A DNA stretch of 64,000 nucleotides from a virus, in the IMG/VR virus record IMGVR_UViG_3300008110_000009. The stretch is one strand, 5' to 3'. The translations under genes were made by a program, and so were the position numbers. The notes below the pieces were generated by a model. It saw nothing but the letters and a program-made list of their open reading frames with translations. It did no database searches and had not been told where the DNA came from. Positions 7,121 to 50,413 of this stretch are shown here, one piece after another; the stretch's first letter is position 1, and every line of letters starts with the position of its first letter.

Positions 7121-8353
7121 TTATGCTTCACTAGGCCCACCAGGTCCACCTGAACAACTATCATTACCTACTGATATAATACCACCATTTGAATCTACTC
7201 TTATAAATTTATATGTACCTCCATCATATAATAAATCACCATTAGGATTTGTTGTTGTTGGGGTATTTTGCGCACTTTGGTTTTCTGATTCAGTTATATA
7301 TGCCATTCTTGTTACATTACCTAATGACCAAGAACCCGCAACAGGTGTTGTTAAACCATAATCACTATAGATTGTTGTAGTACCTGGTGTTAAAATTGCG
7401 TCAGTTGTATAGAATGGTGAGTTAATTAGATAACCTTGTCCACCTGAACCAAAATTATTACAATAAGTTGTTGATATATTAGTGTCCATGACTTCTTCTG
7501 CTCTGTAGTATACATAAACTGTTGTTGGTGTTACTGTTGGTGTTAACGTCGGAACACCAAGACATTGTATACTTACCTCCCAATAGTCATTTACGTCATT
7601 TGGCGCAGCTAACATTGGTGCTGTTAATACATCTATGTAATATGTTTGGGTGTTATCATATGTTATTGTTAATGTTATTGGGCCAGTTTGAGTTGGGTAC
7701 CAATAATCATTTGAATCATAACCAGATGAATTACCAAACCATCCTGTACTTTCAATAATTGTTAAATCTGTTCTAATTGAAATATTGTTTGGTCTATCGT
7801 TTGCTGTACACGTAAAATTAATTAGCGATCCGTTAGCCACCCCTGTAAAATCTAGTTGACGATCAGGGTAATTATAAATCGTTGGCCCAGTATATTCACC
7901 TGTTACAGTAGAACTACATCCTGGCAAGCTAGTAGGGGTTATTGTTGTTGTTGGTGTAATTGTTGGTGTAACGGTAGTAGTAGTTGTTGTTGGTGTAATT
8001 GTTGGATCAACGGTAGTTGGTGTGGTAGTTGGTGTGGTAGTTGTTGTTGGTGTTATTGTTGGGGTAACAGTGGTAGAAGTTGTTGTTGGTGTTGGTGTTA
8101 CACCTGGTATTCCAGTTATTGAAATACATTGTGTTGTACCAGAACAATCTCCGCCGTCCACTTTAACAAATAAACTAACCGTTCCATCAGGTATTGATGA
8201 AATTGTTTTTGGAAAACTAGATACCGCTTGTGATGTTACTAGACTTGTACAGCCACTTCCACAAGACGCACCTGTACATCCTGATATTGAAACGGTTTGT
8301 CCTGTGATTCCGTTTCCTACTGTTCCTAAATTTACTGAAGCGTTAAATGCCAT
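7121..8353 (-). CDS. Putative virion appendage protein: N-terminal domain, Thr/Pro linkers, two head domains
   Basis: 410 aa; TPTTTT mucin-like linkers separate Cys-containing domains. Confidence 0.65.
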   Translation of the reverse strand: MAFNASVNLGTVGNGITGQTVSISGCTGASCGSGCTSLVTSQAVSSFPKTISSIPDGTVSLFVKVDGGDCSGTTQCISITGIPGVTPTPTTTSTTVTPTITPTTTTTPTTTPTTVDPTITPTTTTTTVTPTITPTTTITPTSLPGCSSTVTGEYTGPTIYNYPDRQLDFTGVANGSLINFTCTANDRPNNISIRTDLTIIESTGWFGNSSGYDSNDYWYPTQTGPITLTITYDNTQTYYIDVLTAPMLAAPNDVNDYWEVSIQCLGVPTLTPTVTPTTVYVYYRAEEVMDTNISTTYCNNFGSGGQGYLINSPFYTTDAILTPGTTTIYSDYGLTTPVAGSWSLGNVTRMAYITESENQSAQNTPTTTNPNGDLLYDGGTYKFIRVDSNGGIISVGNDSCSGGPGGPSEA

Positions 8354-8357
8354 ATGT

Positions 8358-8365
8358 TATAAATA
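8358..8365 (-). promoter_or_regulatory. TATTTATA putative late promoter (representative copy)
   Basis: Same motif at 9273-9279, 9928-9935, 23936-23942, 32128-32135, 34476-34482, 44247-44254, 55234-55240, 57233-57240, 58800-58807, 61938-61944, 63936-63943, each 4-40 nt upstream of a start codon. Confidence 0.65.
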
Positions 8366-8382
8366 TTAATTCTTTTATTTTA

Positions 8383-9267
8383 TTATACTGGACACCCAAT
8401 AGGTATATTGTTATTAGCTCTTAATGTCACAGATACATGTAAAGGTGTTGGTGATGGTGTGTAATCCTCTTCTCCAAGCAGATTGTCAATCGGGCTACTT
8501 AAATGTAATTCTGATGTTCCAATAATATCACAAACTCTATATCTTATAATATTACCCGATCCACTAGCCCACATCCCTCTAATTGTATATGGTAATAAAC
8601 TTTCTAAAACATATATAGTTCCACTTCTTGATCCTCCAGCAGATGTGGTTTCATCTAATAATGTTGCACCATTTTTATCTAAGATAACTAATCGTCCACC
8701 AGAATCTGCACCTATAACCCAATCAATTCTTGCTGATGTAGTTGTTGTAGTTGTTGTTGGTGTTGTAGTTGTTGTTGGTGTTGTAGTTGTTGTTGGTGTT
8801 GGCGTTATTATAACATTATATTCAGACGATCCTCCAGTAAAAGTACAATCTGCAGGGGTTGTTGTTGGTGTTGGGCTTGGGGTAATGATTTGATCGCTAA
8901 TAGCAGAACCACCGCTAAATCTACAATCAATATAATTCGATGTACCTCCAGTAAATAAGCAACAATTTATACAATTATCATAAACCTCCTCATGATTTGT
9001 GAAAATATTTTCAATCACATAACCTCCGGTTACTGTATCTAAAATTTTAAACCAATATTGTGTACTATAGGACGCTCCACTAAAAATAATAGGGTTTGTG
9101 TTGTAATATGATCCATCAGAACTTGCTTGATAAGTTGTACCAGAATTTGGATAATATGTATACCCGGTTGTGACCACAGATTCATTACCTGCGGTGGGCC
9201 CAGTTTTATATAATAACTTAAATGGGTTTGGTGAAACAATACCTTTTAATTTTAGATTTAATCCCAT
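8383..9267 (-). CDS. Putative virion appendage protein with C-x-F-(T/S)-GG repeats and Thr/Pro linker
   Basis: Start moved from the track's TTG (9282) to ATG 9267 (MGLNLKLKG), just after a TATTTAT motif. Confidence 0.65.
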   Translation of the reverse strand: MGLNLKLKGIVSPNPFKLLYKTGPTAGNESVVTTGYTYYPNSGTTYQASSDGSYYNTNPIIFSGASYSTQYWFKILDTVTGGYVIENIFTNHEEVYDNCINCCLFTGGTSNYIDCRFSGGSAISDQIITPSPTPTTTPADCTFTGGSSEYNVIITPTPTTTTTPTTTTTPTTTTTTTSARIDWVIGADSGGRLVILDKNGATLLDETTSAGGSRSGTIYVLESLLPYTIRGMWASGSGNIIRYRVCDIIGTSELHLSSPIDNLLGEEDYTPSPTPLHVSVTLRANNNIPIGCPV

Positions 9268-9300
9268 ACTACATAAATACAACTCTTATAAAATATAAAT

Positions 9301-9328
9301 AAAAAACCCCTCGTTTTGAAGGGGTTTT
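9301..9328 (-). terminator. Rho-independent terminator (possibly bidirectional)
   Basis: AAAACCCCT...AGGGGTTTT inverted repeat with T-tract on minus. Confidence 0.8.
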
Positions 9329-9351
9329 AAAATATAATATTAAATTAGTTT

Positions 9352-9912
9352 TTAATTACCAATTAAACATGTTCCATTAGTTGTACAAGGTGTTCCGTCA
9401 TTTGACCATAACCACTCTGTTGTAATTTCTACACCACCTTGAACCCAAACAGGTGTACTATAAGCTCCACTAAATGAAACACATAAACCAGCTGTGATTG
9501 TACTATTACCGTTATCCATTGATTCAATGTTACTTAATAAAACTGTTTGGACGGTACCGTCATAATCTCTATATCTTACATATAAATCACCTGGTGGTGG
9601 ATTAGTTGTACTGTATGTTACAGTCCAACATTCTGCTGTTACACTTGATGTAGTTGTCGGCGTTGGTGTTGGTTGGGATGGGAAAGCTTCCCATTGCTGG
9701 GTATTTGTACAAATTCCGGTACTTGCGATTGTACCACCAGTTGTGAGATCACTAATACCAGTAATTGTATGTCCGGTTAATAATTGTTCCTTTGTTACCC
9801 CTGTTGCTAATTCTGTGGTAACATTACCGCTGGTTGTTCCTGAAATATTAAAAGGCCCAGCAACATATGTTGCGCCAGAATATTGATTTTGTAATGTGAA
9901 TGTAACTATCAT
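9352..9912 (-). CDS. Minimal appendage protein: N-terminal domain, PT linker, Cys-rich C-terminal domain
   Basis: 186 aa; both terminal domains resemble the termini of the 1659-aa neighbour. Confidence 0.7.
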   Translation of the reverse strand: MIVTFTLQNQYSGATYVAGPFNISGTTSGNVTTELATGVTKEQLLTGHTITGISDLTTGGTIASTGICTNTQQWEAFPSQPTPTPTTTSSVTAECWTVTYSTTNPPPGDLYVRYRDYDGTVQTVLLSNIESMDNGNSTITAGLCVSFSGAYSTPVWVQGGVEITTEWLWSNDGTPCTTNGTCLIGN

Positions 9913-9965
9913 TGTTTTTTCTTTTTGTATAAATATTTGTTTATTTGAAATTGTTTATAATTTTT

Positions 9966-12900
9966 TTATACGCTACCTATTAGACATACACCATCAGATT
10001 CACAAATTCCACCTTGGGTCCAACTATCAAAACAAGTAACTTCAACACCACCTTGTACACAAACTGGTGTAGAATATGATGATCCAGGTTTAACACAAAT
10101 ACCTACAGTATATGTACCATTACCATTATCCATGGTCGCTAAATTCTGAATTAATACTGTTTGTACCGTATCTGTAACGTCTCTATATCTTACATATAAA
10201 TCATTTGGTATTGTTACGTAAGTCATTGTATAACAATATCCTGGAGCATCCCCATCAGTTAAAACTGTTAAACCACTTGTTGTTATACAACCATTTGTAT
10301 CAGTAACTTCAAGACAATATCCACCAGATGTTAAACCTGTTATTGATCTTGTTGGGTTACTAGACGCAACACTATAATATTCTGCCACTATATCTCCACC
10401 GCAAGTTGTATATGGTGAGCTAGTGTCCTTATATAATCTATATGTCTTAGGCCACACACCACCACTAGAACTAATATCAAGGCTTCCAGCTGATGGGGAA
10501 TAAAATCCAGGATTAACTGCATTATTAATTGTTGCATATTGTTGTGATGGTTCTGATATGTATACACCATATGTCGCCTCACACTGATTATAGTCTTTAA
10601 GGTACACCGTATAACTTCCAGAAGTTAAATTATTAAATGTTGCTGTTGGAACACCATTAACCAAATTGAATAAGTAATAGTCTGAGAAATCACCAGTCAA
10701 TGAAACTGTTAATTGTCCACTATTACCACTAGTTGGGTTTGTTATTGTTATTGAACCATTAGAACCACCGTAACAAGATATATTAGAATGCGTTATTGTT
10801 GCGCTTGGTGCCGCCTTACTTAAATTAGTGTTTTGATTAGACGATTCACATCCGTTTCCGTCTTTAACTCTAACAGTATATGTTGCTGAGTATAAGCCAG
10901 TAAAGCTATTACTTGATTGCCATGTTGATCCTCCATTAATAGAATATTGATATGAGCCAGCACCACCACTTGCAATTACTGTTATTGAACCATTTGTACT
11001 ATCATAACAAGTTGGATATACCACATTTGTATAGAATGATACTGCACTTGGAACCGTAATTGAAGTTGTGTATGTTTGAACACAATTTGAACCGTCCTTA
11101 ACATAAATAGTATATGAACCATCACCCAAACTAGCGTACGCCTGTGGTAAATTTCCATATGTGCCACCAGCGTTTAATTTAGATTGATAAGTACCACCGT
11201 TACCACCTGTTCCAGAATTAACTGAAATACTACCTGTTCCTCCAACACAAGTTGGATTAAAAATTGATATTGTTGCGTTTGGTGCAGATTTAGATAAAGT
11301 TTGTGTTGTTGCAGCAACACAATTATTAGCGTCTTTAGCATATAATACATATGTTCCAGTACCTAAACTACTAAATGTTGCACTTGCCTGATAGTTTGTA
11401 CCATCTTTTGAATATGTTTTTGTTCCAGTACCACCAGACGCGGATAATGTTATAGAACCATCAGCACCATCCCAACACGTTGGATTTGTTGCTGAATTAA
11501 CACTTACTGTTAATGCAGATGGCTCAGTAATTACATAGGTATATGATGCTTTACAATTTGTTGCATCTTTTATATATAACGTATAGTTTCCTGGTGATAA
11601 ATCACTGAAAATCTTTTGTACTGTGTAGTAAGTAATATCATTAAGAGATACTGTATATGGTCCATTATTACCACCACTTGCGCCAACAACATTTAATGAG
11701 CCGGTACCGCCATTACAATAAGCATTTGTTTGATTTACAACTGGTGTTGGAGCGGATTTTGTTACACTTACAGTCGCACTAGAAGATTGACATCCATTAC
11801 CATCTTTTGATTTAACGGTATAAACACCAGAACTTAAATTGGTAAACACACCACTACTTTGCCACGTTGACCCATTATCTTTAGAATATTCATAACCGCC
11901 TCCAGATCCGCCTGAAGCACTTAGTGTGAACCCTGCATTAGTGCTATTCCAACAAGTTGGATATTGTAATCCAGATGAACTAACAGTAACTTGAGTTGGT
12001 TGTGTTATTGTTACAGCATATGTATTTTCACAACCAGCGCTATCTTTTACATAAATAGTATATGAACCAGCCGATAAAGAAGAATAGGTTCTAGAGGTAG
12101 TTAATACTTGATAAGTTCCGCCCGAATTTAATTTTGTTGAGTATGGACCACCTTGGCCTCCTGATAAATCAGAAACAACTATTGATCCATCGCTACCGCC
12201 ATTACATGTTACATTTGTTTGTGATACTGTTGCGGTTACTTGTGTTCTATCTAAACCTATTGTGTTTGTTCTTACACAACCGGCACTATCTTTTACATAA
12301 ATTGTATATGTCCCATTACCTAAATTGCTGAAGGTTGTACCGGTTTGATATGTGGAACCATCTTTAGAATAGGTATATCCAGAGCCTGTACCTCCAGAAG
12401 CTGATGTTACGGTAATCGAACCATCTGTACTTCCTATACAAGTTGGATTTGTTCTAGATAATGTTGAACTAACTATAGTTGGCTCAGTCACTGTTACTAC
12501 ACTACTATTACCAACTTCACCATATGAATCTTTAGCATATAAAATATATGAACCAGCGGTTAACCCACTGAAAACATTTGACGCTTGATAATTTGTACCA
12601 TCTTTTGAATATGTATAACTTGCAGTACCTCCAGTAACCCCAGAAACAGTAATAACACCGTTTGAGCCACCATTACATGTTACATTAGTTGTGGTTGATA
12701 CACCAACCGTTAAAGTTACGTTAGTAATTGAAATTACAATCGATTTATCATATGTTAATCCTCCAGCATCTGTTGCTCTAACTCTAATTGTATAACTTGA
12801 TTGTGTTTCAAAATCAAATACCGCGGCACTTCTTAATGTTGTTCCTGAAATTGAAAAACTTGAATTTCCTGGATATGATGATGTGTCAACTAAGGCATAG

Positions 12901-14945
12901 GTAAAGGTGTCGCCAGCATCTGGATCAGATGAACTAAATGTCCCTATTGTTGTACCAGTTGGTACATTTTCTGAAATTGAAACTGAACTTAGAGAAATAT
13001 TTGTTGGTGCTTCGTTAACATTGGTTACTGAGATTGCAAATACTTGATCAAATGTTAAACCACCGGCATCTGTTGATCTAATCTTTATTGAATATGAAGA
13101 TTTTGTTTCTAAATCAAATATTGCCGCAGATTTTAAAGATGCTCCAGTAATAGTAAAACTAGAGTTATCTGGATAATTTGCTAAATCAACTAAAGTGTAT
13201 GTAAATGTGTCACCAGCATCTGGATCTGTTGTTGATAGTGTTCCAATTGTTGTACCGGTTGCAGAATTTTCTGCTATTGTATTTGATGATAATGAAATAG
13301 CTGTTGGTGTTTCATTAGCATTTGTTATCGATATTGTTAATGTTTTATCAAATGTTAATCCACCTGAATCGGTTGATCGGACTCTTATTGTATAAGAACT
13401 TTTTGTTTCAAAATTAAATACTGCTGCAGATTTTAGTGTTATACCACTAATACTAAAACTAGAGTTATCTGGATAATTTGCTAAATCAACTAAACTGTAT
13501 GTAAATGTACCGCCGTCTGGGTCAGTTGTTGAAAATGTTCCAATGGTTGTTCCTGTTGCCACATTTTCCTCAATTGATAATGAACTTAAACCAATATTTG
13601 TTGGTGCTTCATTAACATTACTAACATAGATATATAATGTACCATCATAAGTTAACCCACCTTGATCTGTTACTCTAATTTTAATTAAATATTCATTTTT
13701 TACCTCATAATTAAAGACAGCAGCTGATCTGAGTGTTGATCCACTTATGATAAAGCTGTTGTTGTCAGGATAAGTTATAGTATCTCTAAGTGCATAAGTA
13801 AATGTATTTCCAGAATCATTGTCTAATCCACTTAAAATACCAACAGTTGTTCCTGTTGCTGAATTTTCTGGGATAGTATCATTAGAAATACTAAAACCAT
13901 ATGGTGCTTCATTAACATTTGTTACATAAGCTGTTAACACACCTTCAAATGTTAAAGAATTAGAATCTGTTGCTCGAACTTTAATTGGATATGAATTTTG
14001 GATTTCATAATCAAAAATTTCAGCAGACTTTAAAACCCCTCCACTAGTTAATGTGAATTTATTATTATTTGGATAAGATAATGAATCTATAAATTCGTAT
14101 GTAAATGTATCACCACTATCAGGATCAAGCGCTGTTATTGTACCAACAGTTGTTCCTGTGGGTGAATTTTCCGGAATACTTCCGTTTAAATTTAAACCAT
14201 ATGGCGCTTCATTAATATTTGTTACATTAATTGTAAACGCTTTATCATAAAATAATCCACCGGCATCGGTTGATTTTATGATTATACTGTATGATGATTT
14301 ATTCTCGTAATCAAAAATTGCGGATGTTCTTAAATCAGAACCATCTATGTTAAAAGATGCCGCATCCCCAGTTGATTGTATGGAATAAGTATGTGTGTCG
14401 CCTAAATCAACATCATTAGTACTTAAAGTTCCAACAATTGTGTTTATTGGGCTGTTTTCATTTACTGTATTATTGCTTAAATTAATATCTACTGGTGCAG
14501 AATTTGTTGGGGTCGGGGTTGATGTAGATGTTGGCGTTGGTGTCGCTATAACCGCAATAGTGTCTATTAAAAATTCACAATTAGGGGTATAGGTTGATGT
14601 TGGTGTAAGAGTAATAGTTGGAGTGTTGGTTGGTGTTTCGGTTGGTGTTGCTGTAAGTGTTGGTGTTGAAGTTGGTGTGGCAGTTGGTGTTGGTGTTGGT
14701 AAAATTAAATCGTCACCAATTAAACAATATGGATCTGTGTTATATAAGATTATTTTATATGCATTATCAGGTACAGAAACTAACACACCGTTTATATCTG
14801 TTAAATCTGAATATGTTATTCCTGTTGCGGGTAATGACGTTGAAACCACCGTAGCAATATTCAACGGATCAACAACATCATAATAAATGTTGTATGGCCC
14901 TGGTGCCGTTCCTGAAGATATTGTTACTGTGAATTGTTTTGCCAT
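9966..14945 (-). CDS. Large adhesin-like protein: 6 cadherin-like repeats plus ~10 SprB-like repeats
   Basis: NEAP...ENS.TGT.IG.L...D.D.GD..TY...FDYE..SSY.I...STD.GGL cadherin signature x6; TC.G..DGSI.V..SGG....Y.YS.DG..YQ....F..L..G.Y.IYVKD..GC SprB-type signature x~10. Confidence 0.85.
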   Translation of the reverse strand: MAKQFTVTISSGTAPGPYNIYYDVVDPLNIATVVSTSLPATGITYSDLTDINGVLVSVPDNAYKIILYNTDPYCLIGDDLILPTPTPTATPTSTPTLTATPTETPTNTPTITLTPTSTYTPNCEFLIDTIAVIATPTPTSTSTPTPTNSAPVDINLSNNTVNENSPINTIVGTLSTNDVDLGDTHTYSIQSTGDAASFNIDGSDLRTSAIFDYENKSSYSIIIKSTDAGGLFYDKAFTINVTNINEAPYGLNLNGSIPENSPTGTTVGTITALDPDSGDTFTYEFIDSLSYPNNNKFTLTSGGVLKSAEIFDYEIQNSYPIKVRATDSNSLTFEGVLTAYVTNVNEAPYGFSISNDTIPENSATGTTVGILSGLDNDSGNTFTYALRDTITYPDNNSFIISGSTLRSAAVFNYEVKNEYLIKIRVTDQGGLTYDGTLYIYVSNVNEAPTNIGLSSLSIEENVATGTTIGTFSTTDPDGGTFTYSLVDLANYPDNSSFSISGITLKSAAVFNFETKSSYTIRVRSTDSGGLTFDKTLTISITNANETPTAISLSSNTIAENSATGTTIGTLSTTDPDAGDTFTYTLVDLANYPDNSSFTITGASLKSAAIFDLETKSSYSIKIRSTDAGGLTFDQVFAISVTNVNEAPTNISLSSVSISENVPTGTTIGTFSSSDPDAGDTFTYALVDTSSYPGNSSFSISGTTLRSAAVFDFETQSSYTIRVRATDAGGLTYDKSIVISITNVTLTVGVSTTTNVTCNGGSNGVITVSGVTGGTASYTYSKDGTNYQASNVFSGLTAGSYILYAKDSYGEVGNSSVVTVTEPTIVSSTLSRTNPTCIGSTDGSITVTSASGGTGSGYTYSKDGSTYQTGTTFSNLGNGTYTIYVKDSAGCVRTNTIGLDRTQVTATVSQTNVTCNGGSDGSIVVSDLSGGQGGPYSTKLNSGGTYQVLTTSRTYSSLSAGSYTIYVKDSAGCENTYAVTITQPTQVTVSSSGLQYPTCWNSTNAGFTLSASGGSGGGYEYSKDNGSTWQSSGVFTNLSSGVYTVKSKDGNGCQSSSATVSVTKSAPTPVVNQTNAYCNGGTGSLNVVGASGGNNGPYTVSLNDITYYTVQKIFSDLSPGNYTLYIKDATNCKASYTYVITEPSALTVSVNSATNPTCWDGADGSITLSASGGTGTKTYSKDGTNYQASATFSSLGTGTYVLYAKDANNCVAATTQTLSKSAPNATISIFNPTCVGGTGSISVNSGTGGNGGTYQSKLNAGGTYGNLPQAYASLGDGSYTIYVKDGSNCVQTYTTSITVPSAVSFYTNVVYPTCYDSTNGSITVIASGGAGSYQYSINGGSTWQSSNSFTGLYSATYTVRVKDGNGCESSNQNTNLSKAAPSATITHSNISCYGGSNGSITITNPTSGNSGQLTVSLTGDFSDYYLFNLVNGVPTATFNNLTSGSYTVYLKDYNQCEATYGVYISEPSQQYATINNAVNPGFYSPSAGSLDISSSGGVWPKTYRLYKDTSSPYTTCGGDIVAEYYSVASSNPTRSITGLTSGGYCLEVTDTNGCITTSGLTVLTDGDAPGYCYTMTYVTIPNDLYVRYRDVTDTVQTVLIQNLATMDNGNGTYTVGICVKPGSSYSTPVCVQGGVEVTCFDSWTQGGICESDGVCLIGSV

Positions 14946-14964
14946 TATTTTATATAATTATTCA

Positions 14965-17331
14965 TTAACTTTGATTACACGGGTTTAAATTATATCCCAA
15001 TGTGTTTAGTGCTGTTATTATTTGATCCGCATAATATTGAGCGGTTGAACCCGCTGTGACATTTGAAATGTAGGTTATTTCACTCTTATCAGATAGACCG
15101 TTTGTTCCTGAGTATGCACCGGTTCCATCTTTAACCGCCACCAAGAATTGTCTAAATCCATCATATGAATTTGGACCCGTATTAACTCTAAACACAATAC
15201 CTCTATAATAACTGCTATTAGGAACATTGTCAAGCGTTGATCTTAAGCCGCTTATATCAGTATCATACGTTCCTGTTCTGACACTGGTATTAAATGAGCT
15301 ACCATCAGCAGCGTATGGAGAAGATTCGTCTTGGAATACTAAGTTTATAACTTTGGTTATACCAGCTGTTGTTCCTGTTGTGTTCAATACGTACATTGTT
15401 CTTTCAGTACCACCAGATTTACTTGAGAAGTTGCTTACCGTTACGTTTTGATCATATGTGTTATAATCATTATTGTAGAATTGAACGAGACAATCTCTTA
15501 AAATAGTATCTCTCATACTTTGTAATGGTGATAGTGTTGAGTTCATTGAGCCGCTATCGTCAAACCAAATATTAATTTCAGTGTTTTCATCAACAACTAA
15601 TGGGGTACCTAATGCAGCCTCAAACACACAATCAGGTGTGTATGTTGATGTTGGTGTTGCGGTTGGTGTTTCAGTTACAGTTGGTGTTGGTGTTTCAGTT
15701 GATGTAGATGTTGGTGTCTCAGTCAACGTTGGTGTTGGTGTCGATGTAGGTGTGGGTGTAGTAATTAAAGCCACTGTGTCAATTACAAACTCACAATTTG
15801 GTGTATAAGTAATTGTAGGTGTTTCTGTTACTGTAGGTGTTTCAGTAGATGTTACGGTTGGTGTTACTGTTGGTGTTGATGTTGGGGTAGGCGTACTAAT
15901 TACTGCCACTGTATCAATTATAAATTCACAGTTTGGTGTATATGTTTCAGTTGGTGTAATTGTAATTGTTGGGGTATCTGTTGCTGTTGGTGTCTCAGTT
16001 GCTGTTGGGGTTGGGGTTACTGTTGGTGTTGCAGTTGATGTTGGTGTTGGGGTATATATTGTACCACAATCTACGTACTCAATCTTTTTACATACAGGAT
16101 TTTCTGGATCAGTGGTGTCTAAAGTATAACCAGCTGGACAGCTATAGTTTGTGCAGAATCCCTCACCCGCCAAAGGTCCACCAGGTAAGTAATCACCTGT
16201 TGAGAACATTATATTTAATTCACTTGCATTGGTTACCCCAGTCAATGTTGCTAGTGTATCGTCATATACCTCAGCAGCAAACGATCCCACACTACTTCTA
16301 TTCCAGTTTTCAATTTCAACAATATTTGGACCTGCTTCTAGTGTTACTGGATATATGTGGTAGAATCTAAAATTATCTACTGGTGAGTTATCTGCTTGAT
16401 TTATTAATGTTACAGAATTTATTTTAACTGTAATATCATTATCACCAGCCACGCCGATATAATATGTTTTTGTTGTAGTTAAATTGAATGTTGCACAGAA
16501 ACTAACGTAATCAGGATAATTTGGATTTGGCCATGTCGTGTTACCATCAACCCAAACGTTAATTTGATTCATTCTACCAGCCCAGAATGATTCGTTAGGT
16601 GTTGTATCTGGGCTACCATATGCCGTTGTATAACCAGAATATGCTAAGTTACCACTTATCGAATTTCCAACAGTATTGTAGTCATTTTCATTGTATATCT
16701 TAACACCATACATTCCGTATGCTGAGTTACTACCACCATCACCAACTAACAAGTTTTCAATTGATGTTGGGGTTGATGTTAATACTCTATAACATGCACC
16801 CCCATCATTTGTGGCTGTAAATCCTTCAGGACAATCACATGTTGGTGTTATAGTAGGTGTTTCGGTTACTGTTGAAGTAGAGGTAGGTGTTGGTGTTGCA
16901 ACAATAGCATCAATATTAATAATAAACTCACAACTATCTGATGATGTTGTTGTTGGTGTTTCAGTAGATGTTACAGTTGGCGTTAAAGTTGGTGTTGGTG
17001 TTGCTATAACCGCGTTGATATCTATTACAAACTCGCAACTATCCGATGATGTTGTTGTTGGTGTTTCAGTTGGTGTAATTGTTATCGTCGGGGTTGAGGT
17101 TGGTGTTGGGGTTACTCCTGGAACTATTTCTAGGTTACAGACAAACCCTTCAAGTTCATTTTTAAAATTAAAATCGTATGTACCGTAGTAATAATCTGAG
17201 GTCCAAAAATAAGGTATAAGTACGTTGGTTCCGATGGTAACAGCTGTTCCTCCGCTATATGGATGAAAAACAACATCAGCATAATAACCGTTGTATAAAC
17301 CAGATGCACTATATAATCTTATTGTTGCCAT
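14965..17331 (-). CDS. Modular appendage/scaffold protein: PT linkers with Cys peptides, PA14-like domain, C-terminal vWA-like domain
   Basis: YYIGVAGDNDITVKIN...LEAGPNIVEI (PA14-like); IWFDDSGSM (MIDAS DxSxS) and LVFQDE. Confidence 0.65.
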   Translation of the reverse strand: MATIRLYSASGLYNGYYADVVFHPYSGGTAVTIGTNVLIPYFWTSDYYYGTYDFNFKNELEGFVCNLEIVPGVTPTPTSTPTITITPTETPTTTSSDSCEFVIDINAVIATPTPTLTPTVTSTETPTTTSSDSCEFIINIDAIVATPTPTSTSTVTETPTITPTCDCPEGFTATNDGGACYRVLTSTPTSIENLLVGDGGSNSAYGMYGVKIYNENDYNTVGNSISGNLAYSGYTTAYGSPDTTPNESFWAGRMNQINVWVDGNTTWPNPNYPDYVSFCATFNLTTTKTYYIGVAGDNDITVKINSVTLINQADNSPVDNFRFYHIYPVTLEAGPNIVEIENWNRSSVGSFAAEVYDDTLATLTGVTNASELNIMFSTGDYLPGGPLAGEGFCTNYSCPAGYTLDTTDPENPVCKKIEYVDCGTIYTPTPTSTATPTVTPTPTATETPTATDTPTITITPTETYTPNCEFIIDTVAVISTPTPTSTPTVTPTVTSTETPTVTETPTITYTPNCEFVIDTVALITTPTPTSTPTPTLTETPTSTSTETPTPTVTETPTATPTSTYTPDCVFEAALGTPLVVDENTEINIWFDDSGSMNSTLSPLQSMRDTILRDCLVQFYNNDYNTYDQNVTVSNFSSKSGGTERTMYVLNTTGTTAGITKVINLVFQDESSPYAADGSSFNTSVRTGTYDTDISGLRSTLDNVPNSSYYRGIVFRVNTGPNSYDGFRQFLVAVKDGTGAYSGTNGLSDKSEITYISNVTAGSTAQYYADQIITALNTLGYNLNPCNQS

Positions 17332-17334
17332 TTA

Positions 17335-17925
17335 TTATATTTGAGTTAATGTTGCTATTACTGATGGCACTGACGGACCAATAGTTGGGGTCAGTGATGT
17401 TATTTGTATATTACTATCTGTTGTTGCCCAAGCAATTTCAACATAATCACCGCTATTTAAGTTGGGGTATATTATGTTCCAAGCAGCAACAACATATTCA
17501 CCGTTATTGGCGAAAGTTATTACTGTATTAGAGCTTGTAATAGATGTACCATTTTTCTTAAACCATATATAGAAATTTTCCGTTGTTCCACCTTGTACTC
17601 TATATAATTGAGCAGAGAATTGTAAATTATACGATCCTGGGTTACTAACAATCATTTGTGATCCATTAGCCCATGTACACCCATTTGTTGCATCAAGACT
17701 ATTAAATGTCATTAAATGCTCAGTATTTGTAGTTCCTGTTTGAATCACGGAACTACTATATGAACCAAAAAATCTTGTTGTGCCACTTGTTATAACACCA
17801 GAAAATAAATCTTCATGTGTTATAGCAGCAGAATCATATGGACCATTTCCTTGAGCCATATAAAATAACGATCCGCTTGTTGGGGTTGTTAATCGTTGTA
17901 ATTCTGAAATTCTAGTTATACTCAT
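17335..17925 (-). CDS. Fibre-tip-like protein with C1q/TNF-like C-terminal domain
   Basis: N-terminal RISELQ module; GSYNLQFSAQLY...IWFKKNG...LNSGDYVEI resembles the C1q/BclA-CTD jelly roll. Confidence 0.65.
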   Translation of the reverse strand: MSITRISELQRLTTPTSGSLFYMAQGNGPYDSAAITHEDLFSGVITSGTTRFFGSYSSSVIQTGTTNTEHLMTFNSLDATNGCTWANGSQMIVSNPGSYNLQFSAQLYRVQGGTTENFYIWFKKNGTSITSSNTVITFANNGEYVVAAWNIIYPNLNSGDYVEIAWATTDSNIQITSLTPTIGPSVPSVIATLTQI

Positions 17926-17948
17926 TTTATTTAAATATTTTTTTTTAT

Positions 17949-20900
17949 TTATTCTTCTATTAATATGTCAGTATTATTTTCATCCACAATAAAACTTGCA
18001 CCACTTTCAAGAATTATCCCTTGAGAACTTTCAACAATTTCATAAGTCATATCACAAGATCCCTCTGTAAATGTAATTGTTGGTGTCGAAGTTATTGTTG
18101 GCGTTGTGGTAGAGGTTGGTGTAGGTGTTGATATAACTGAATTAATATCTATTACAAATTCACAACTATCTGATGATGTTGTTGTTGGTGTTTCAGTTAT
18201 AGTTGGTGTAGCTGTTTCTGTTGGTGTTGGTGTTGCAATAATTGCAATTGTATCAATTATAAAATCACAATTAGATGTAAAAGTTGATGTTGGCGTTATA
18301 GTAACACTTGGTGTCGGTGTTGCAATTGTTGCGACTGTATCAATAACAAATTCACAATTTGGTGTGTATGTCGATGTCGGCGTTATAGTGACGCTCGGTG
18401 TTGGGGTTGCAATTGTTGCAACTGTATCAATAACAAATTCACAATTTGGTGTTGATGTTGATGTCGGTGTTATAGTGATACTTGGTGTCGGAGTGGGAAT
18501 TACAGCAACTGTATCAATTACAAATTCACAATTTGGTGTTGATGTTGAAGTTGTTGTTGGTGTAGGTGTTAGCGTCACAACATTTGTATCAATTACAAAT
18601 TCACAATTTGGTGTTGTTGTTACTGTTGGTGTACTAGTTGGCGTCTCTGTTACAGTAGGCGTACCAGTGTTTGTTGATGTATTTGTAGGTGTACTAGTTG
18701 GTGTCTCAGTCAACGTTGGTGTTGGTGTCGATGTAGGTGTATTTGTAGCGGTTGGTGTGCTAGTTATGGTAGGTGTACTGGTAGATGTATTTGTTGGTGT
18801 AGGTGTAGATGTTGGACTTGGGGTTACTATTGGATATGTGCTACCACAAGGTACGGCCGGGGTTATAACACCACATTCAGTTGTATAATTTCTTACAGGA
18901 TCTTCAATTTCAGTTTTACAACATTGATTATCAATATAATATTGACTTAAGCTCATATTAAGTCTATTAAACTTAGTATATGAGTGTTGTATTAATACTT
19001 GTGTTCCATCATTACCATTAAACAATATTAGGTTTTGAGGTTGTGTTCCTGTTATATTAATGTTATAATAAAGATTATTTTCACAGTAATTTAAATTAAC
19101 TGAAATAACCTCTAATAATTCACCTTTTTCTGTAATTAAAAAATCACCAGTATCATAATAATCTGATGGATAATAACAACAAGGCTCCTCCGGTGTTTCT
19201 GGTTTTAATTGCAAAAACTCTGGAGATCTAGAATCAAAAAAGTAACCATCTCGTTTAGATACCCTATATGTTGCTTCATCAACCTCTTTATTTGTGTAAA
19301 CACGTAGTTTTGTTGTTGGTAAAACTTCAATAACAACCTGTTGACCGTTTGAGGTCATACCTATTATTTCACTTTTCTTTACAGATCCTAAACAATCAAT
19401 ATCGCTAATTGTATGCGTTGAATAATCATATGAAAAAGAATAATCATTGTTTTCACTAGCATATTCAAACATGCTTGATGAAAGTGTGGTGCATGATAAG
19501 TATGTTGCACCTAATATGACATTTCCATTAACTAAATCTTTAACATCTTTCTTAACAAGAGTTCCAGCAGCTAAATAACTAGTAATATTTGCTGGTGTTG
19601 TAGATGAATTAATTGTAGCACCACTAACAACAATAACTTTAGTATTGTGTTTTAAACCATAATTGTATGTGTTTCTATATTGTACTTTTGGTACTAATGT
19701 ATAGCCAGTGTTAACAACTAACGGTAAATCAGGCACTTCAGATGGGTATTCTACATATCTTAATGCTAGTCCTTCTATTTTTACTTTTTTATCACAGTTT
19801 GCTGCATCAGTAAAAATTAAATCAATAACCTCATCTTCTCTTACATTACTAAGTTTGAACTTACAATTTTCTCCAACAATTTGGAAGAAACTTGTATCTG
19901 TATAAGTTGGGTGGTATCCTGTACTGATGTTATTTCCTGGTGTACAATTTCTTTGAACATATACACCCCATCCACTATCGTTACCAGATTGAACAGTAAC
20001 ACCTGTTAAGCTAACAATAACATCTGTTGCAACTTTACAAGTTGGATAACCAGAATAAACATCACAAGACGCATCAAATGATAAATCTAAATGACATTTT
20101 GGCTCAGTATATTTGTAATCAACATCAAAATAAAAATCTAAATTATCTTTTACTAAACATTCTCCAGAAGAGTTTGTGTGTGCAATAAATTTAACTTTTT
20201 CAACACCATTATTATCTGTGAAAAATTCATAAGATATTAATTGTGTTTTTCCTGACAATATAGCATTTCCAGGAACATATGAAGGGGTATTGAATGCACT
20301 ATATTGTGTTTCTGTTTGATTAATTTGTTCAACAAGAGATGCTATGGCGTTTTTCCAAGCGGCTTTTATTGTTGTTAAATTTAAATTAATCCAATTTTTA
20401 TATTCACAAATAAGTGGTATTTTAGATGTTGAGGAAGTTAGTACACTACAACTTTCCACAGCAGTAAAACCAGTACCAAATAAGGTACTGCCGGTTAAAA
20501 CTACTTGTGTCGTTCCACTATAATCAGTACCGTCAATATCAATATGTAAAGTAAATGTTACACCACTAAATTCAATTAAACCTCTTAGATTATCTGGATC
20601 TCCAATTATTGTTTCAAGATCTTCTTCAATTACTGTTTCAAATTCTGGATATAAATTTTCTACAATCTCTAATGGTTTACATGGTTTTCTATATGAAAAC
20701 TTGGGTCTACCAAAAACATTGTTTTCAATTAAATTACCCCCCATCCATAATGTTGTTGATGGTATAATTTGTTCTAAAACATTTGACCAATATGGGCTCA
20801 TCTGATTAACAAAATCAGATGTTGATATTATATCATAAGTTGTATAACCAGATGCTACTAATTGATTTATATAATCCTGATAAACATCCTCTAAAGCAAT

Positions 20901-23003
20901 ATAATTCTTCTTATATCTTATTATATTTGAATTAGTTATTTGATTTGAGAAGGTATTTTCTAAATATTGTGCAAAAGTTACACCAGTTTGTGGTGGTAGA
21001 CTATTTGTGCCAAAAGTTACTTCAAGTTCTCTAGATTTTCTCCAAATATCATAGTTAACAGCATTTGCTGCAGATACGAATACGTTTATGTTTTTTCTAT
21101 TAAGAATTAAATTTGAAAGAGCTTCGTCTTCTAAGATTTGTCCTTGCTGATTATCAATTTCACTTTTTATTGTGAAACCATAATCTAAGCCAGGTAATGT
21201 TCTGTAATTATCAAAAAACTCTTCACCATAAGAATATGGTTTTGCTGTTGTTAATAGCGTTTTAGTTCTTCCGGTTAATACTGAATTTTCAGTATCAAGG
21301 ACATCGGAAGATCTATGATCTAAGCTAACATTTGCCCAGCCAGACCCCATTTGGAAGAAAACATTTTCTTGATTTGTTGTTGGAGCTTTAGGTAATAATG
21401 TTGTTTCGTCGATGGGGTAATCGGTTAGTTGATTATTTGTTGTTAACCCTGTTAAAGAAGAAACGGTATAAGTGTATGTATCACTATTAAATGTTACACT
21501 ATTACTAACATTAATATTATTTAATGTGTTATTTAGATCATCTAAAGTAGATGGAGGTAACGCACTGGTTACTTTATAAACATATTCGTTTATTTTCACC
21601 ATTGGATCTGGCGCACCGATAAACTTTAAGAAAAATTCAATACTACTTCTAGTGCCTTTTGATTTATATATAAATGCTAGATTAACTAATAACCTTCTAT
21701 AGAATTCAAGTTCGGCTTCTACTAAATTTTTACCAATAGCTTGTCCATTGTAAACAGTGGAAGAAGCTTTATATATTTGTTCTTCTAAACTTTTTTGATC
21801 AAATAAATTAATGGTATTAAGACCTAGTGTATTTGCTAAGTTTTTAAGAAAAACATCTGGGATATTATCAATTGCGTCATAAGAAACATTTCTCATGTTC
21901 GCGATATTGTCAATATAAGATTTTACTTTATCGAAGCTCTGACCATATAATTGAAATATCTTATCAATTTTTTGATCCTCTGTGTCAAATTCAAATAATT
22001 GCGGCGCAACAAGAAATCTTGTAACTAAATTGGATTTATAGTTATCAATTTCAGTTGCTAAGTCACTTAAACGTGTTAGATATTCCTCGAACTTAAGACC
22101 GGTAATTTGAATGTTGTACCCATCTTTTGATGTTGGCCAGTTAACTAATATGGAAATCAGTTCTGTTTTTGTTTCGTCTAAACTAGTTCTAGGAACCGTA
22201 AACCCAGCTTGATATATTGGGTATGTTTCTCGATTTAATAATGTTTGTTCTAAATCGTCTAAACCTAAATAAAATTCTTCAACAACACTGTCATTTGGTC
22301 TTAAAATAAAACTATCTGAATATGTTGCACCAGTAAATGGTTTACCATCAACAACAAGTGTTATTTGGTTAAACTGATCTGGCTGTACGTAACTTGTTAC
22401 AGCATAAGTTTTATCCTCTATTACAATACAATATTTTGTATATGAAGAAAATAAATTTCTTATTTTATTTTCAACTTCAATTAATTGACTTGCTGTTGGT
22501 TCTTTTAATACAATATCAAAAGGATTAAAAAATCTACCAACTTGAGTTTTAAATGTGGTTGTATTAGTTGTTGGATTATGTGTTATATTTTCAGCAGTGT
22601 AACTGTTAATAGACGCTAAAGCATCTTTGTCAATAAAAATACCGCCGGGAAAATTTTTAGCAATTCTAGCAATAGAGACTCTTATTCTTTCTCTTAATGA
22701 TCCAAAAAGAGACTTAGATGCATCTCTTTTATTTGTATTAAATCTTACTGGTCTTTTTTTACCATCAGATTGTACAACTGTTGTTGGAACATCTTCCTCA
22801 ACCTTAAGATTTTCTAATGTAATAAAATCTGAAAATGGCGCAGTTTGGAATTTTTTTGAGTCTTTCTCTGGGACAATCGTATCAAGAGCGAAGTTCGTAT
22901 TAGTCAATTGACTAGTACCGTCGGTAATTTGTCTACCAACGAGACTATCGTTAAACGTATCAAAACCACTAGCCGCCTGACTCGGAACTTTTCTTTTTGC
23001 CAT
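17949..23003 (-). CDS. Large baseplate wedge-type protein (P2 gpI / T4 gp7-like region) with C-terminal PT/Cys-peptide tail
   Basis: LKNLANTLG and [18 protein letters not shown] typical of gpI-like wedge proteins; last ~290 aa are PT linkers plus CEFVID repeats. Confidence 0.65.
18040..18830 (-). repeat. Tandem coding repeats (Pro/Thr linker plus C-E-F-V-I-D peptide)
   Basis: Six CEFVID/CDFIID copies and one degenerate CDMTYE, with matching DNA repeats around 18160, 18265, 18350, 18440, 18525, 18600. Confidence 0.9.
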
Positions 23004-23947: not shown

Positions 23948-25210
23948 TTATTGTTTTTTCACAACGAAAAATCCATTTCCATATATGTCTAATTCGCCAA
24001 TATTGTCAATTTCCCCTAATCTTAAATTAAATTCAGATACCCCCATCTTACCTCTTTCAACAAATATGTCAGAATAAACCGATGGATCTGAAACAAACCC
24101 CAAAAAATGCTCATTTCTGGTTAACATTTTATTTACCACATACTCTGTAGCAAAATCTGTACTGTTACCTGTTGTAAATCCAGAAGTTCCATTTATAATG
24201 TGGTTTGGCACTTTTCCTGTAACATAGGTTACCCCGTCTGAGCAATCATAATAATCTAAGCCATCAACTGTATATTTTGAACAGCTTAAGGTTGTACCAG
24301 GTAGTGAAGTTGATGTTACACCCGTATAAGCCGTTTGGCCGTATAATTTTTTTTCTATAATTCTACTTTTACCAACAGCAACAAATGTTAAACTTGTTGA
24401 CGATAGTGTTTTTGTTGATCCTGAAGCCGCCACACCATAATCTGTGTATGGGAAGGTAAAAGTAAGGGTACCCAAACTAGTTGGATCACCGATAACTAAA
24501 GGTAGCTTTATTGTCCTTGATAATGTTTGTACTTTCCAAGGGCTATTCATTGTAATTGAAATTACTTTACTACCTGCAGTTGAATATGTTTTGGTTGCGT
24601 TACCTAAAATTGAAATAGAAGAGGCTGTAGAATCTCCCCAATTAATTTGGAAGGTTGCGTCAACGACTCTTTTTAAAGTATTTGTATTGGTTGTGTTATA
24701 AACAGTTACGGTGTTTCCAGAAGCTTTATATGTAAAATTACAAAGTTGTTCTACTTGATCGATATCACCATCAAAACCAACCATAACACCTAATTCATCT
24801 ACTTTTGAATCTAGAAGTATTGGTAATTCATAATCTGGATATGCAGCTGATTTATTTTTTCCAATGTTAACCCAAGATGTTCCATTCCATCTATAATAAT
24901 AACCTTTGTCTGTCCACGTTAACGCTTCTGGTTGCTCAACCCAAAACGATGTTTGTGTTGACGGTATTTTATTTAAATTTGAAACAACTAATGATTTATA
25001 TATTTTACCATTATAATAAATGGTATCTCCAGAGGTGTAAGTGATATCGCTATACCATTTAACATCCATGACTGTTGTTCCACTAGTTGGTACAGTTGTT
25101 GCTGACCATGGAACTAACTGTAGGTTATTATCATACCAATACTGCCCAGCGTTATATAAAACAACCGATAATATATTTTTTTGCAATATTTCGTACTTAT
25201 ATTTTCTCAT
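23948..25210 (-). CDS. Virion protein with CBM5/12-like and PKD-like domains
   Basis: WYSDITYTSGDTIYYNGKIYKS...P......W (CBM5/12-like); FQINWGDS...KTYSTAGSKVISIT (PKD-like). Confidence 0.6.
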   Translation of the reverse strand: MRKYKYEILQKNILSVVLYNAGQYWYDNNLQLVPWSATTVPTSGTTVMDVKWYSDITYTSGDTIYYNGKIYKSLVVSNLNKIPSTQTSFWVEQPEALTWTDKGYYYRWNGTSWVNIGKNKSAAYPDYELPILLDSKVDELGVMVGFDGDIDQVEQLCNFTYKASGNTVTVYNTTNTNTLKRVVDATFQINWGDSTASSISILGNATKTYSTAGSKVISITMNSPWKVQTLSRTIKLPLVIGDPTSLGTLTFTFPYTDYGVAASGSTKTLSSTSLTFVAVGKSRIIEKKLYGQTAYTGVTSTSLPGTTLSCSKYTVDGLDYYDCSDGVTYVTGKVPNHIINGTSGFTTGNSTDFATEYVVNKMLTRNEHFLGFVSDPSVYSDIFVERGKMGVSEFNLRLGEIDNIGELDIYGNGFFVVKKQ

Positions 25211-50103: not shown

Positions 50104-50413
50104 AATATAGTCTATACAATTCTACGCCCTTTTTATAATCTTGTAAAGAATTAATCAAAGGAAAAGGAATCCTAATAATTGCGTTATCTGGTATCTCAAA
50201 CTCTACGGAACCTAATTTGGGATTAGCCATTAAAATTAACCAACTAAACAATGGGGTTCCATAATATTCTTGTGATATTTTATCTAAACGGTCTTTACCC
50301 TTTTTATAGTTAAAAAACTTATCAGTAGACTTTTGGGGTATTTCAATACCTGGAACAATTTTATGTTCCCCGTCTTCTAAAAAGTAATCATATCTATTGA
50401 AATACTGATTCAT
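50093..50413 (-). CDS. LysM-like baseplate protein (T4 gp53 / P2 gpX-like)
   Basis: DRLDKISQEYYGTPLFSWLILMANP...IRIP. Confidence 0.8.
   Translation of the reverse strand: MNQYFNRYDYFLEDGEHKIVPGIEIPQKSTDKFFNYKKGKDRLDKISQEYYGTPLFSWLILMANPKLGSVEFEIPDNAIIRIPFPLINSLQDYKKGVELYRLYYGE

Follow-up and report, generated by a model that had tools for sequence, protein, structure and literature searches.

Three adjacent virion-appendage genes in this uncultured phage genome repeat one short Cys-led peptide, which raises the question of whether the peptides are sites at which separate proteins dock or elements of the stalk in which they lie. The original prediction had taken them for donor strands that complete the N-terminal domains (N-domains) of other proteins in trans and are locked there by disulfides, so that a branched tree would lead from a 1684-aa baseplate protein (B) through a 788-aa secondary scaffold (S) to the adhesive heads. 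We followed the question through a 64,000-nucleotide window of the viral record IMGVR_UViG_3300008110_000009 and through related loci, on the basis of sequence comparison and moderate-confidence models; the phage group is entirely uncultured.

Composition of the appendage module

The region is best explained as the distal appendage module of a jumbo myophage, comprising B and five fibre or adhesin proteins, in each of which PT linkers connect an N-terminal anchor domain to exchangeable heads. The genes lie side by side on the minus strand, and those for the 1684-, 788- and 1659-aa proteins carry the motif. Gene B (17949..23003, minus strand, from its ORF and translation) encodes a large protein with a conserved body (residues 1 to ~1440), a PT-linker tail bearing six motifs and a C-terminal cap (residues 1648-1684; 17952..18062, minus strand) made of a degenerate Cys-led strand and a ~25-residue acidic tail. 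The body recurs in 56 related loci at 38-98% identity, and Pfam, PHROG and PDB sequence searches with B returned zero matches, as did a PDB sequence search with S; we infer its baseplate role from gene order, downstream of a Baseplate_J/gp6-like gene (32182-34014).

Between B and S sits P0007, a small fibre-like gene of 196 aa (17335..17925, minus strand). Gene S (14965..17331, minus strand, from translation and pattern scan) encodes, all on the minus strand, an a-type N-domain (17116-17331), two motifs (17005-17037 and 16900-16932), a PA14-like domain (about 16042-16839), two further motifs (15898-15930 and 15763-15795) followed by a degenerate Cys-led strand, and a C-terminal vWA-like head (14968-15609). 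The PA14 assignment of the middle domain was reduced to a weak resemblance, with a match of 18.5 bits (E 0.0018) below the gathering cut-off of 24, and the vWA head gave no Pfam match at E up to 1 and no PDB sequence match, its only hallmark being a D-D-S-G-S motif of D-x-S-x-S-like form.

The 1659-aa adhesin, A (9966..14945, minus strand), was delimited by Pfam, pattern scan, an AlphaFold2 model of residues 1-145 and alignment of b-type sequences. On the same strand it carries a b-type N-domain (14691-14945), a single motif (14547-14579), cadherin repeats (about 12846-14498), SprB repeats (about 10446-12845) and a Cys-rich tip (about 9969-10235). Pfam confirmed both heads that had been read from the sequence, cadherin at E 6e-54 (180.8 bits, 6 stretches) and SprB at E 4e-36 (122.6 bits, 6 stretches). 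The 186-aa protein (9352..9912, minus strand) joins a c-type N-domain (9688-9912) by a PT linker to a tip domain that shares 55% identity over 92 aa with the C-end of A. The 410-aa protein (7121..8353, minus strand), a homologue of which was found in locus L019, has a Cys-rich d-type N-domain (8099-8353), long PT linkers and two more domains. A fifth gene of the same architecture, missing from the original list, encodes a protein of ~294 aa (8383..9267, minus strand; probable ATG start at 9267 inside a 299-aa TTG ORF) with an e-type N-domain, three longer Cys-led elements of the C-x-F-[ST]-G-G type, PT linkers and a head.

The Cys residues reported at positions 65, 74, 68 and 70 in the N-domains of the 788-, 1659-, 186- and 410-aa proteins were all in place, and the 410-aa protein has further ones at 26, 31, 35 and 76. 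All 40 b-type sequences have C74 and all 8 c-type sequences have C68, which supports the proposal of a modular virion appendage cluster whose separate heads carry N-terminal anchor domains ending in a conserved Cys. The host is probably a freshwater Bacteroidota, a guess drawn only from the SprB repeats, the 32% GC and distant Flavobacterium phage relatives.

Selection on the Cys-led motif

A six-frame scan of the window for the motif pattern gave 11 in-frame matches, all on the minus strand, reproducing exactly the predicted count of six in B, four in S and one in A. The pattern was absent outside these three genes from both the window and the whole 88.8-kb record, the chance expectation estimated from amino-acid composition being ~0.01 matches. 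All copies have Pro/Thr linkers on both sides, as had been described, and two degenerate copies are likewise present, one opening the B cap and the other preceding the last domain of S. The six copies in B found by pattern scan (18132..18605, minus strand; 18573-18605, 18498-18530, 18411-18443, 18324-18356, 18237-18269 and 18132-18164) follow one another at spacings of 25, 29, 29, 29 and 35 residues.

Pairwise comparison of the motif copies over 11 codons yielded pS 0.63 and pN 0.17, and comparison between proteins yielded pS 0.69 and pN 0.16; the copies of L006 likewise point to selection at the peptide level. The motif is shown to be one amphipathic beta-strand maintained by such selection. 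Recent gene conversion or DNA duplication was rejected as the cause of the uniformity, synonymous sites being close to saturation among the copies. Two other candidates were dropped by eye: a Bacteroidota O-glycosylation sequon (D-[ST]-hydrophobic) within the motif, since many variants lack it, and Asn-Cys as an intein-like cleavage site, since the Asn is not conserved and no intein domain adjoins the arrays in the window.

Lineage-specific distribution of the motif

The motif family comprises at least 262 distinct instances, found only in this group of uncultured jumbo myophages. In the consensus of 262 distinct instances, positions +2, +4, +8 and +9 are hydrophobic in 63-84% and position +6 in 54%, while D, E, N or G occupies -1, +1, +3 and +5 in 60-76%; Cys, Phe and Val/Ile share one, hydrophobic, face of the strand. 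Motif identity between proteins is 0.67 within a genome versus 0.28-0.41 for G000 against other motif-type lineages, and it is 0.37 between G000 and L006 despite 85% identical B bodies. Across the family, the alignments show a motif that is uniform within a genome, lineage-specific in sequence and missing from several lineages. No motif was found anywhere in a 245-kb relative, although its B has 854 linker residues, or in the 852 linker residues (373+479) of L117.

Matches to the DNA pattern for N-C-E-F-[VI]-I-D-T in viral contigs were confined to this phage clade, and the 10 single matches in 185,579 prokaryote genomes, none of them PT-flanked, are thus chance matches. The PT-rich bacterial proteins returned by protein search contained no motif, and no motif-bearing bacterial protein was found. 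Megablast and tblastn searches of INPHARED phages with B found nothing, an ESM Atlas feature search with B gave no usable match, and the literature on donor-strand or beta-solenoid elements in phage fibres and on this phage group yielded nothing relevant.

The arrays vary between close relatives: genomes 97% identical in B differ in carrying 6 or 5 copies and an S of 788 or 523 aa. The smallest repeat period is 21-23 residues, so that the linker is there roughly as long as the strand, and spacing increases in order along nine arrays (Kendall tau 0.58-0.93). One could suppose that the motif has no role in assembly, its copies being multivalent sticky or metal-binding patches that touch the host surface or neighbouring fibres, or hydrophobic islands tolerated in fast-evolving linker DNA. 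The optional presence of the motif across the family, the variation in copy number and linker length even at 97% B identity, and the location of arrays in proteins of host-range type, whose heads are cadherin, SprB and PA14-like, would fit such a role. However, purifying selection on every copy and the uniformity within a genome argue against neutrality, the ordered rise in spacing suggests structural design, and the searches returned no bacterial protein with the motif. We regard a non-assembly role as very improbable, the least probable of the readings considered here.

Motif and N-terminal domains across genomes

Apart from the pairing of b with c, which are homologous (hhalign 92.7%), phmmer found no cross-matches among the N-domain families a, b/c, d and e. 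Families c and e are present in the motif-less 245-kb relative, family b occurs in the motif-free loci G003, L112 and L116, family a is found in L117 where arrays are absent, and the e-type domain was detected in every lineage examined, motif-less ones included. The N-domain Cys is conserved in these motif-less genomes and loci too. As these distributions show, the motif occurs independently of every N-domain family, and the proposal that the repeated peptides are docking sites for the N-domains fails on co-occurrence, a test that the original prediction had itself set.

Several observations do agree with trans docking: b- and c-type N-domains end in a single conserved Cys and the motif Cys is invariant, uniformity of the motif within a genome is what a common receptor would impose, AlphaFold2 adds the motif strand to a b-type sandwich in cis (see below), and heads that in relatives form part of B have genes of their own here. 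On the other hand, one peptide would need to be accepted by four or more unrelated N-domain families (a, b/c, d and e), and the b-type domain by itself already gives a confident model of ~7 strands. Motif arrays also precede covalently fused heads in L008, L019 and G004, where docking would be unneeded, and in G004 the motifs are confined to B. Together with the position of S as a distal continuation of B rather than a branch, these points leave trans docking quite unlikely. The comparisons argue instead that the motif is an optional stalk element and not a socket-and-plug docking site.

The split between B and S

The middle domain of S shares 70-71% identity with a domain that is fused into B in L022, L043, L052 and L056, and the S head matches the C-end of L008 B at 80% identity over 210 aa. 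Since relatives carry both S domains fused, at 70-80% identity, S is by homology the detached distal part of the B polypeptide; the "secondary scaffold" of the proposed tree is therefore not a motif branch. The head of the ~294-aa protein similarly shares 47% identity with the fused C-end of L013 B, and such alignments show that heads switch between fused-to-B and separate-gene states.

The B cap (~35 aa) is conserved in L006, L010, L027, L117 and L118; all other loci lack it. Cap loci always have a gene with an a-type N-domain, the two occurring together in 6/6 split genomes and in 0 of >50 other loci. A P0007 homologue lies in the same position at the split loci and is detectable in four of the five; that of L118, judged by eye only, has 312 aa and a similar N- and C-terminus but falls below phmmer detection at 1e-4. 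The break in B is thus shown, at the level of gene content, to be marked by a trio: a cap at the C-terminus of B, a small fibre-like gene and the a-type N-domain of S.

Part of the donor-strand idea is retained: it is plausible for the B cap, strictly accompanied by the S N-domain, and for the single motif of the adhesin, and is not supported for the repeated motif. Co-occurrence of donor and acceptor across genomes holds only for the B cap and the a-type domain. In a restricted form of strand addition, the only partner of Cys-led strands would be the terminal strand of a- or b-type N-domains, which is itself Cys-led and motif-like: the B cap would pair with the a-domain of S, and the adhesin motif with its own or a sister-chain b-domain. 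Array copies would offer extra landing sites for b-type adhesins, and c-, d- and e-type proteins would attach elsewhere. Beyond the strict association of cap and a-domain exactly at the split, this reading agrees with the final strand of the a-domain, which is itself a motif copy; in L031 a divergent a-like N-domain without a cap partner ends in a strand directly followed by the first array copy. A single motif lies constantly 35-45 residues after the b-domain in many lineages, and most genomes with b-type adhesins also have arrays. Against it, many b-type proteins lack a motif of their own, b-type domains occur in the three motif-free loci named above, and L117 has cap and a-domain with arrays absent, so that arrays are unneeded for that junction. 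Even with the cis model described below, we consider restricted strand addition unlikely, although it is a better candidate than trans docking.

Predicted structures of the motif arrays

Modelled alone from a single sequence with AlphaFold2, the B tail gave pTM 0.63 and a core pLDDT of 70-77. Every motif and the first strand of the cap formed rungs of one stacked beta structure resembling a beta-solenoid, with a strand of 8-11 residues per motif copy plus short linker strands. AlphaFold2 is known to invent solenoids for repeats, and confidence in this single-sequence model was only moderate. Foldseek comparison of the tail model with the PDB returned only weak beta-helix and beta-solenoid neighbours including FapC, none of them significant (E above 0.3).

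The model of adhesin residues 1-145 comprised a b-type domain folded as a ~7-strand sandwich without the motif (pLDDT 81-89) and the single motif added to this same N-domain as a further strand (pLDDT about 69), so that a limited strand addition is conceivable. Foldseek of this N-terminus against the PDB found nothing significant (SefD, E 0.54), and a wide structural search with the N-domain model found a generic FN3/C2-like sandwich at Z <=5.1, SpyCatcher lying at noise level (Z 4.1). A complex prediction of the b-type N-domain (residues 1-90) with a 35-residue, single-motif stretch of B scored 0.03 against a mark of 0.32 in a run without controls, and so weighs neither for nor against binding.

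The reading we favour, tentatively and with a probability of about 0.4, is that the motifs self-associate and thereby structure the stalk, which may be disulfide-stapled, and that the cap-plus-anchor trio joins the split halves. The motifs would bind each other in an in-register stack within a chain, between sister chains or both, burying the Cys/Phe/Val face and turning a floppy PT linker into a structured, possibly stapled stalk with rungs set farther apart towards the tip. The cap and the a-domain, perhaps with the small protein, would hold S end-to-end on B, and the remaining heads would be anchored through their N-domains to conserved baseplate sites rather than to motifs. Several features speak against stacking. 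The linkers of the arrays, at 23 to >70 residues, are unusual for a regular solenoid, and acidic residues at alternate positions (in L006, D at +3, +5 and +7) would repel one another in register unless bridged by cations. The adhesin motif modelled within the N-domain sandwich, and the motif-like terminal strands of a- and b-type domains, weigh against a reading by stacking only. The L031 a-like N-domain, lacking a cap partner, likewise counts against the proposed junction.

A more speculative possibility is that array copies, the B cap and the Cys-led terminal strands of N-domains constitute one interchangeable family of plugs, whose strand contacts would be disulfide-locked by oxidation after lysis, leaving separately encoded heads either plugged covalently onto the baseplate stalk or stacked with it. 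We hold this to be as doubtful as trans docking. A search for the phage sulfhydryl oxidase PF04777 found no match, and control genomes were equally without one, so that this negative carries no weight. Thioredoxins occur in relatives and have no bearing on the disulfide question either way.

Relation to known assembly systems

Branched receptor-binding complexes are known from CBA120 (TSP1-4), G7C (gp63.1/gp66) and Klebsiella phage K64-1, and are built of trimeric tailspikes with T4 gp10-like adaptor domains. The present module resembles them in its side-by-side receptor-binding proteins with a short N-terminal anchor and an exchangeable distal head, in the proposed attachment to a baseplate-bound adaptor protein and in the shuffling of heads between relatives. 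It differs in its long PT linkers, five different small beta-sandwich anchors, the cap/anchor trio at a point of gene fission and Cys-led strand arrays without counterpart; Pfam, PHROG, PDB and structural searches found no sequence or fold match to proteins of these complexes.

Cellulosomal scaffoldins likewise have PT-rich linkers between repeated modules on a long scaffold and separate subunits with different heads. However, cohesins (about 140 aa) and Ca-binding dockerins (about 70 aa) are folded domains, whereas the repeat here has 12 residues and is dispensable in relatives, N-domain families a, b, c and e occurring in repeat-free genomes or loci; no Pfam match to cohesin or dockerin was obtained in seven proteins and their sub-domains. 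As in donor-strand complementation of chaperone-usher and type V pili, or in SpyTag/SpyCatcher, a short amphipathic strand could be added to an Ig-like sandwich and might conceivably be locked there covalently; unlike pilins, which are incomplete without a donor strand, the N-domains are conserved even without any motif in the genome. Like beta-solenoids, the functional amyloids CsgA and FapC, and the T4 fibritin foldon, the arrays would consist of short, self-associating strand-plus-turn units in register, with an Asn or Asp before the strand and ladders of identical residues, the stacked beta tail being that predicted by AlphaFold2. They differ from all of these in lacking sequence similarity, in their long PT-rich linkers of graded length and in the leading Cys.

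Significance for phage appendages

Phage host range is decided by modular receptor-binding appendages, and this phage group displays unusually plastic ones, in which heads move between fused and separate genes. The conserved cap/anchor trio marks the split of a polypeptide and so points to a specific candidate for a docking pair that is small and portable. Selection maintains the Cys-led strand arrays, which are lineage-specific, have orderly rising spacing and lack a described counterpart. Were the plug family real, the virion would contain a natural, programmable system of assembly by strand capture, in which lineage-specific plugs prevent mis-assembly during co-infection. If the arrays self-assemble or are locked by oxidation, they would stiffen or crosslink flexible linkers in a new way and might serve as a tool for protein engineering.

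Results

The record is 88.8 kb long in IMG/VR (completeness estimate 29%), and the window is AT-rich, with a GC content of about 32% and all of its genes on the minus strand. Seven genes in a row encode proteins of 1684 aa (B, 17949-23003), 196 aa, 788 aa (S, 14965-17331), 1659 aa (A, 9966-14945), 186 aa, ~294 aa and 410 aa. Other products of the window are ribonucleotide reductase, a DnaB-like helicase, an exonuclease and a wedge protein of gp6/Baseplate_J type. Among cultured phages, Flavobacterium myophages and a Microcystis phage come closest, matching the wedge protein at only 26% identity. Upstream on the same strand are two ORFs of very large size, 1940 and 1601 aa (44281-55218). The ORF of the ~294-aa protein (299 aa) opens with TTG (9268-9282); because every relative starts at the Met of M-G-L-N, the ATG at 9267 is the probable true start.

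The original prediction had described a ~12-residue motif, C-[ED]-F-[VIL]-I-[DN]-[TI]-x-[AVS]-x-[IVT]. A six-frame scan returned 11 matches, confined to B (six), S (four) and A (one), each between Pro/Thr linkers, and the rest of the 88.8-kb record had zero matches to this pattern. Synonymous sites mostly differ among the copies (pS 0.63 against pN 0.17; pS 0.69 and pN 0.16 for copies compared between proteins); conservation lies in the peptide and not in the DNA. The Cys positions reported for the N-terminal domains (N-domains) proved correct and the cadherin and SprB domains were confirmed; the PA14 match is sub-threshold, and for vWA only a motif is seen. The motif observation is real and non-trivial. 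After a PT linker, the next structured element almost always begins with Cys. The ~294-aa gene carries three tandem longer Cys-led elements, C-x-F-[ST]-G-G-[ST]-...-[VI]-I-I-T-P (8810-8965), which resemble the motif strand interrupted by a Gly-rich insertion; loci L014 and L042 have single elements of similar form in their e-type proteins, e being the N-domain family of the ~294-aa protein.

IMG/VR contains 56 loci related to the B body (identity 38-98%), a large protein database contains further relatives, and lineage-specific versions of the motif sit in the PT linkers of these relatives. The consensus of 262 distinct instances, [ND]-C-[DEN]-F-x-[VI]-[DN]-x-x-[VI]-[VI]-x-[AP]-T-P, is hydrophobic at +2, +4, +6, +8 and +9 and polar or acidic at -1, +1, +3 and +5, a single amphipathic strand with the Cys on its hydrophobic face. 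One variant is common to all copies in the different proteins of a genome (identity 0.67), whereas the present lineage (G000) shares only 0.28-0.41 with other motif-type lineages, L006 included, although the B bodies of G000 and L006 are 85% identical; the synonymous divergence of the L006 copies is likewise old. The motif was not found outside this phage group. Six copies occur in a 727-aa homologue (P0067, another lineage) of the 420-aa gene at 23948-25210, and in the more distant relatives L038, L049 and L115 arrays are found in large structural proteins of other kinds. The motif moves among virion proteins.

In nine arrays, drawn from various proteins and lineages, spacing grows from the N- to the C-terminus (Kendall tau 0.58-0.93). 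Successive spacings are 25, 29, 29, 29 and 35 residues in the array of B (18132-18605, minus strand) and 23, 23, 23, 29, 35, 39, 45 and 45 in L014; L019, L042, L111, G004 and G005 are also among the rising arrays. The shortest repeat period is 21-23 residues, and most increments are a multiple of 2 or of 6 residues.

The motif had been proposed as a donor strand docking the N-domains into a branched tree. By phmmer these domains form five families with zero cross-hits (a on S, b on A, c on the 186-aa, d on the 410-aa and e on the ~294-aa protein); by profile comparison b and c are homologous (92.7%, E 4e-7), with their terminal Cys, invariant in both, aligned. A 245-kb relative (74% complete) keeps c- and e-type proteins and has 854 linker residues in B, with zero motifs anywhere in its sequence. 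G003 and L112 have b-type proteins, the motif being absent from the sequence examined, and in L117 an a-type protein goes with 852 linker residues that lack the motif. Conversely, L038 and L049 have arrays and lack a-e domains in the locus, and G004 has an array in B only, followed by a fused head. Motif and N-domains therefore occur independently across genomes, the very outcome named beforehand as refuting docking. For the arrays the donor-strand role is unsupported, and the full branched-tree model is improbable.

AlphaFold2 modelling of A residues 1-145 (40-sequence alignment) gave a folded region at residues 1-85 (pLDDT 81-89), a disordered linker and the motif as a strand (pLDDT about 69). 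In that model the strand belongs to the sandwich, since structural alignments with C2-type sandwiches reach through residues 134-137. The single-sequence model of the B tail (residues 1455-1684; pTM 0.63, core pLDDT 70-77) places a long strand at each motif and at the first strand of the ~35-residue C-terminal cap, with two short strands per linker, a predicted stacked, solenoid-like body of moderate confidence whose structural neighbours are beta-helix proteins only, all non-significant. The two moderate-confidence models point in different directions. The best viral neighbours of the b-type model (14511-14945) are several uncharacterised 'Virus NIOZ-UU157' proteins (BFVD, E 1.9e-3, TM 0.76 by target), so this anchor domain may be spread more widely in marine phages.

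In L008, B is one 2077-aa chain comprising the body, 12 motifs of the same type as in L006 and a head that matches the C-terminal end of S (80% identity over 210 aa). Four other relatives carry, fused within B, a counterpart of the PA14-like middle domain of S (70-71% identity). Since both are fused in B of relatives, S is the distal portion of B that has become detached. In L013 the head of the ~294-aa protein is likewise fused to B (47% identity). In all six split genomes (the present phage, L006, L010, L027, L117 and L118), B ends with the conserved cap and S begins with an a-type domain, a small fibre-like gene lying in between (recognised by eye only in L118). In the other loci phmmer detected no element of this trio, save one divergent a-like domain in L031, and L117 has the trio without any array. 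By Rosetta-stone logic, their position at the B/S break suggests the cap and a-domain, perhaps with the small protein, as the junction; both contain a conserved Cys-led strand.

L010 and L027, 97% identical in B, have five motif copies in B against six in the window and an S of 523 aa against 788 aa, a very rapid turnover of module content. The 186-aa protein and A end in the same ~90-residue Cys-rich domain (9352-9640 and 9969-10235; 55% identity), which may be a receptor-contacting tip. In L117 a related domain opens a 641-aa protein. In L033 a 167-aa ORF with a Hint/intein-like beginning (C-L-V-x-G-T-type start; 15888-16391) directly follows B.

Discussion

We favour, at a probability of roughly 40%, a joint reading in which the arrays would self-associate, possibly disulfide-stapled, as optional stalk elements, the trio would join S to B, and N-domains would hold the remaining heads on conserved baseplate sites. 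A restricted strand-addition model is unlikely. The system is of a known kind, the modular receptor-binding appendages of phages; new in it are a repeat not described before and a candidate pair for docking.
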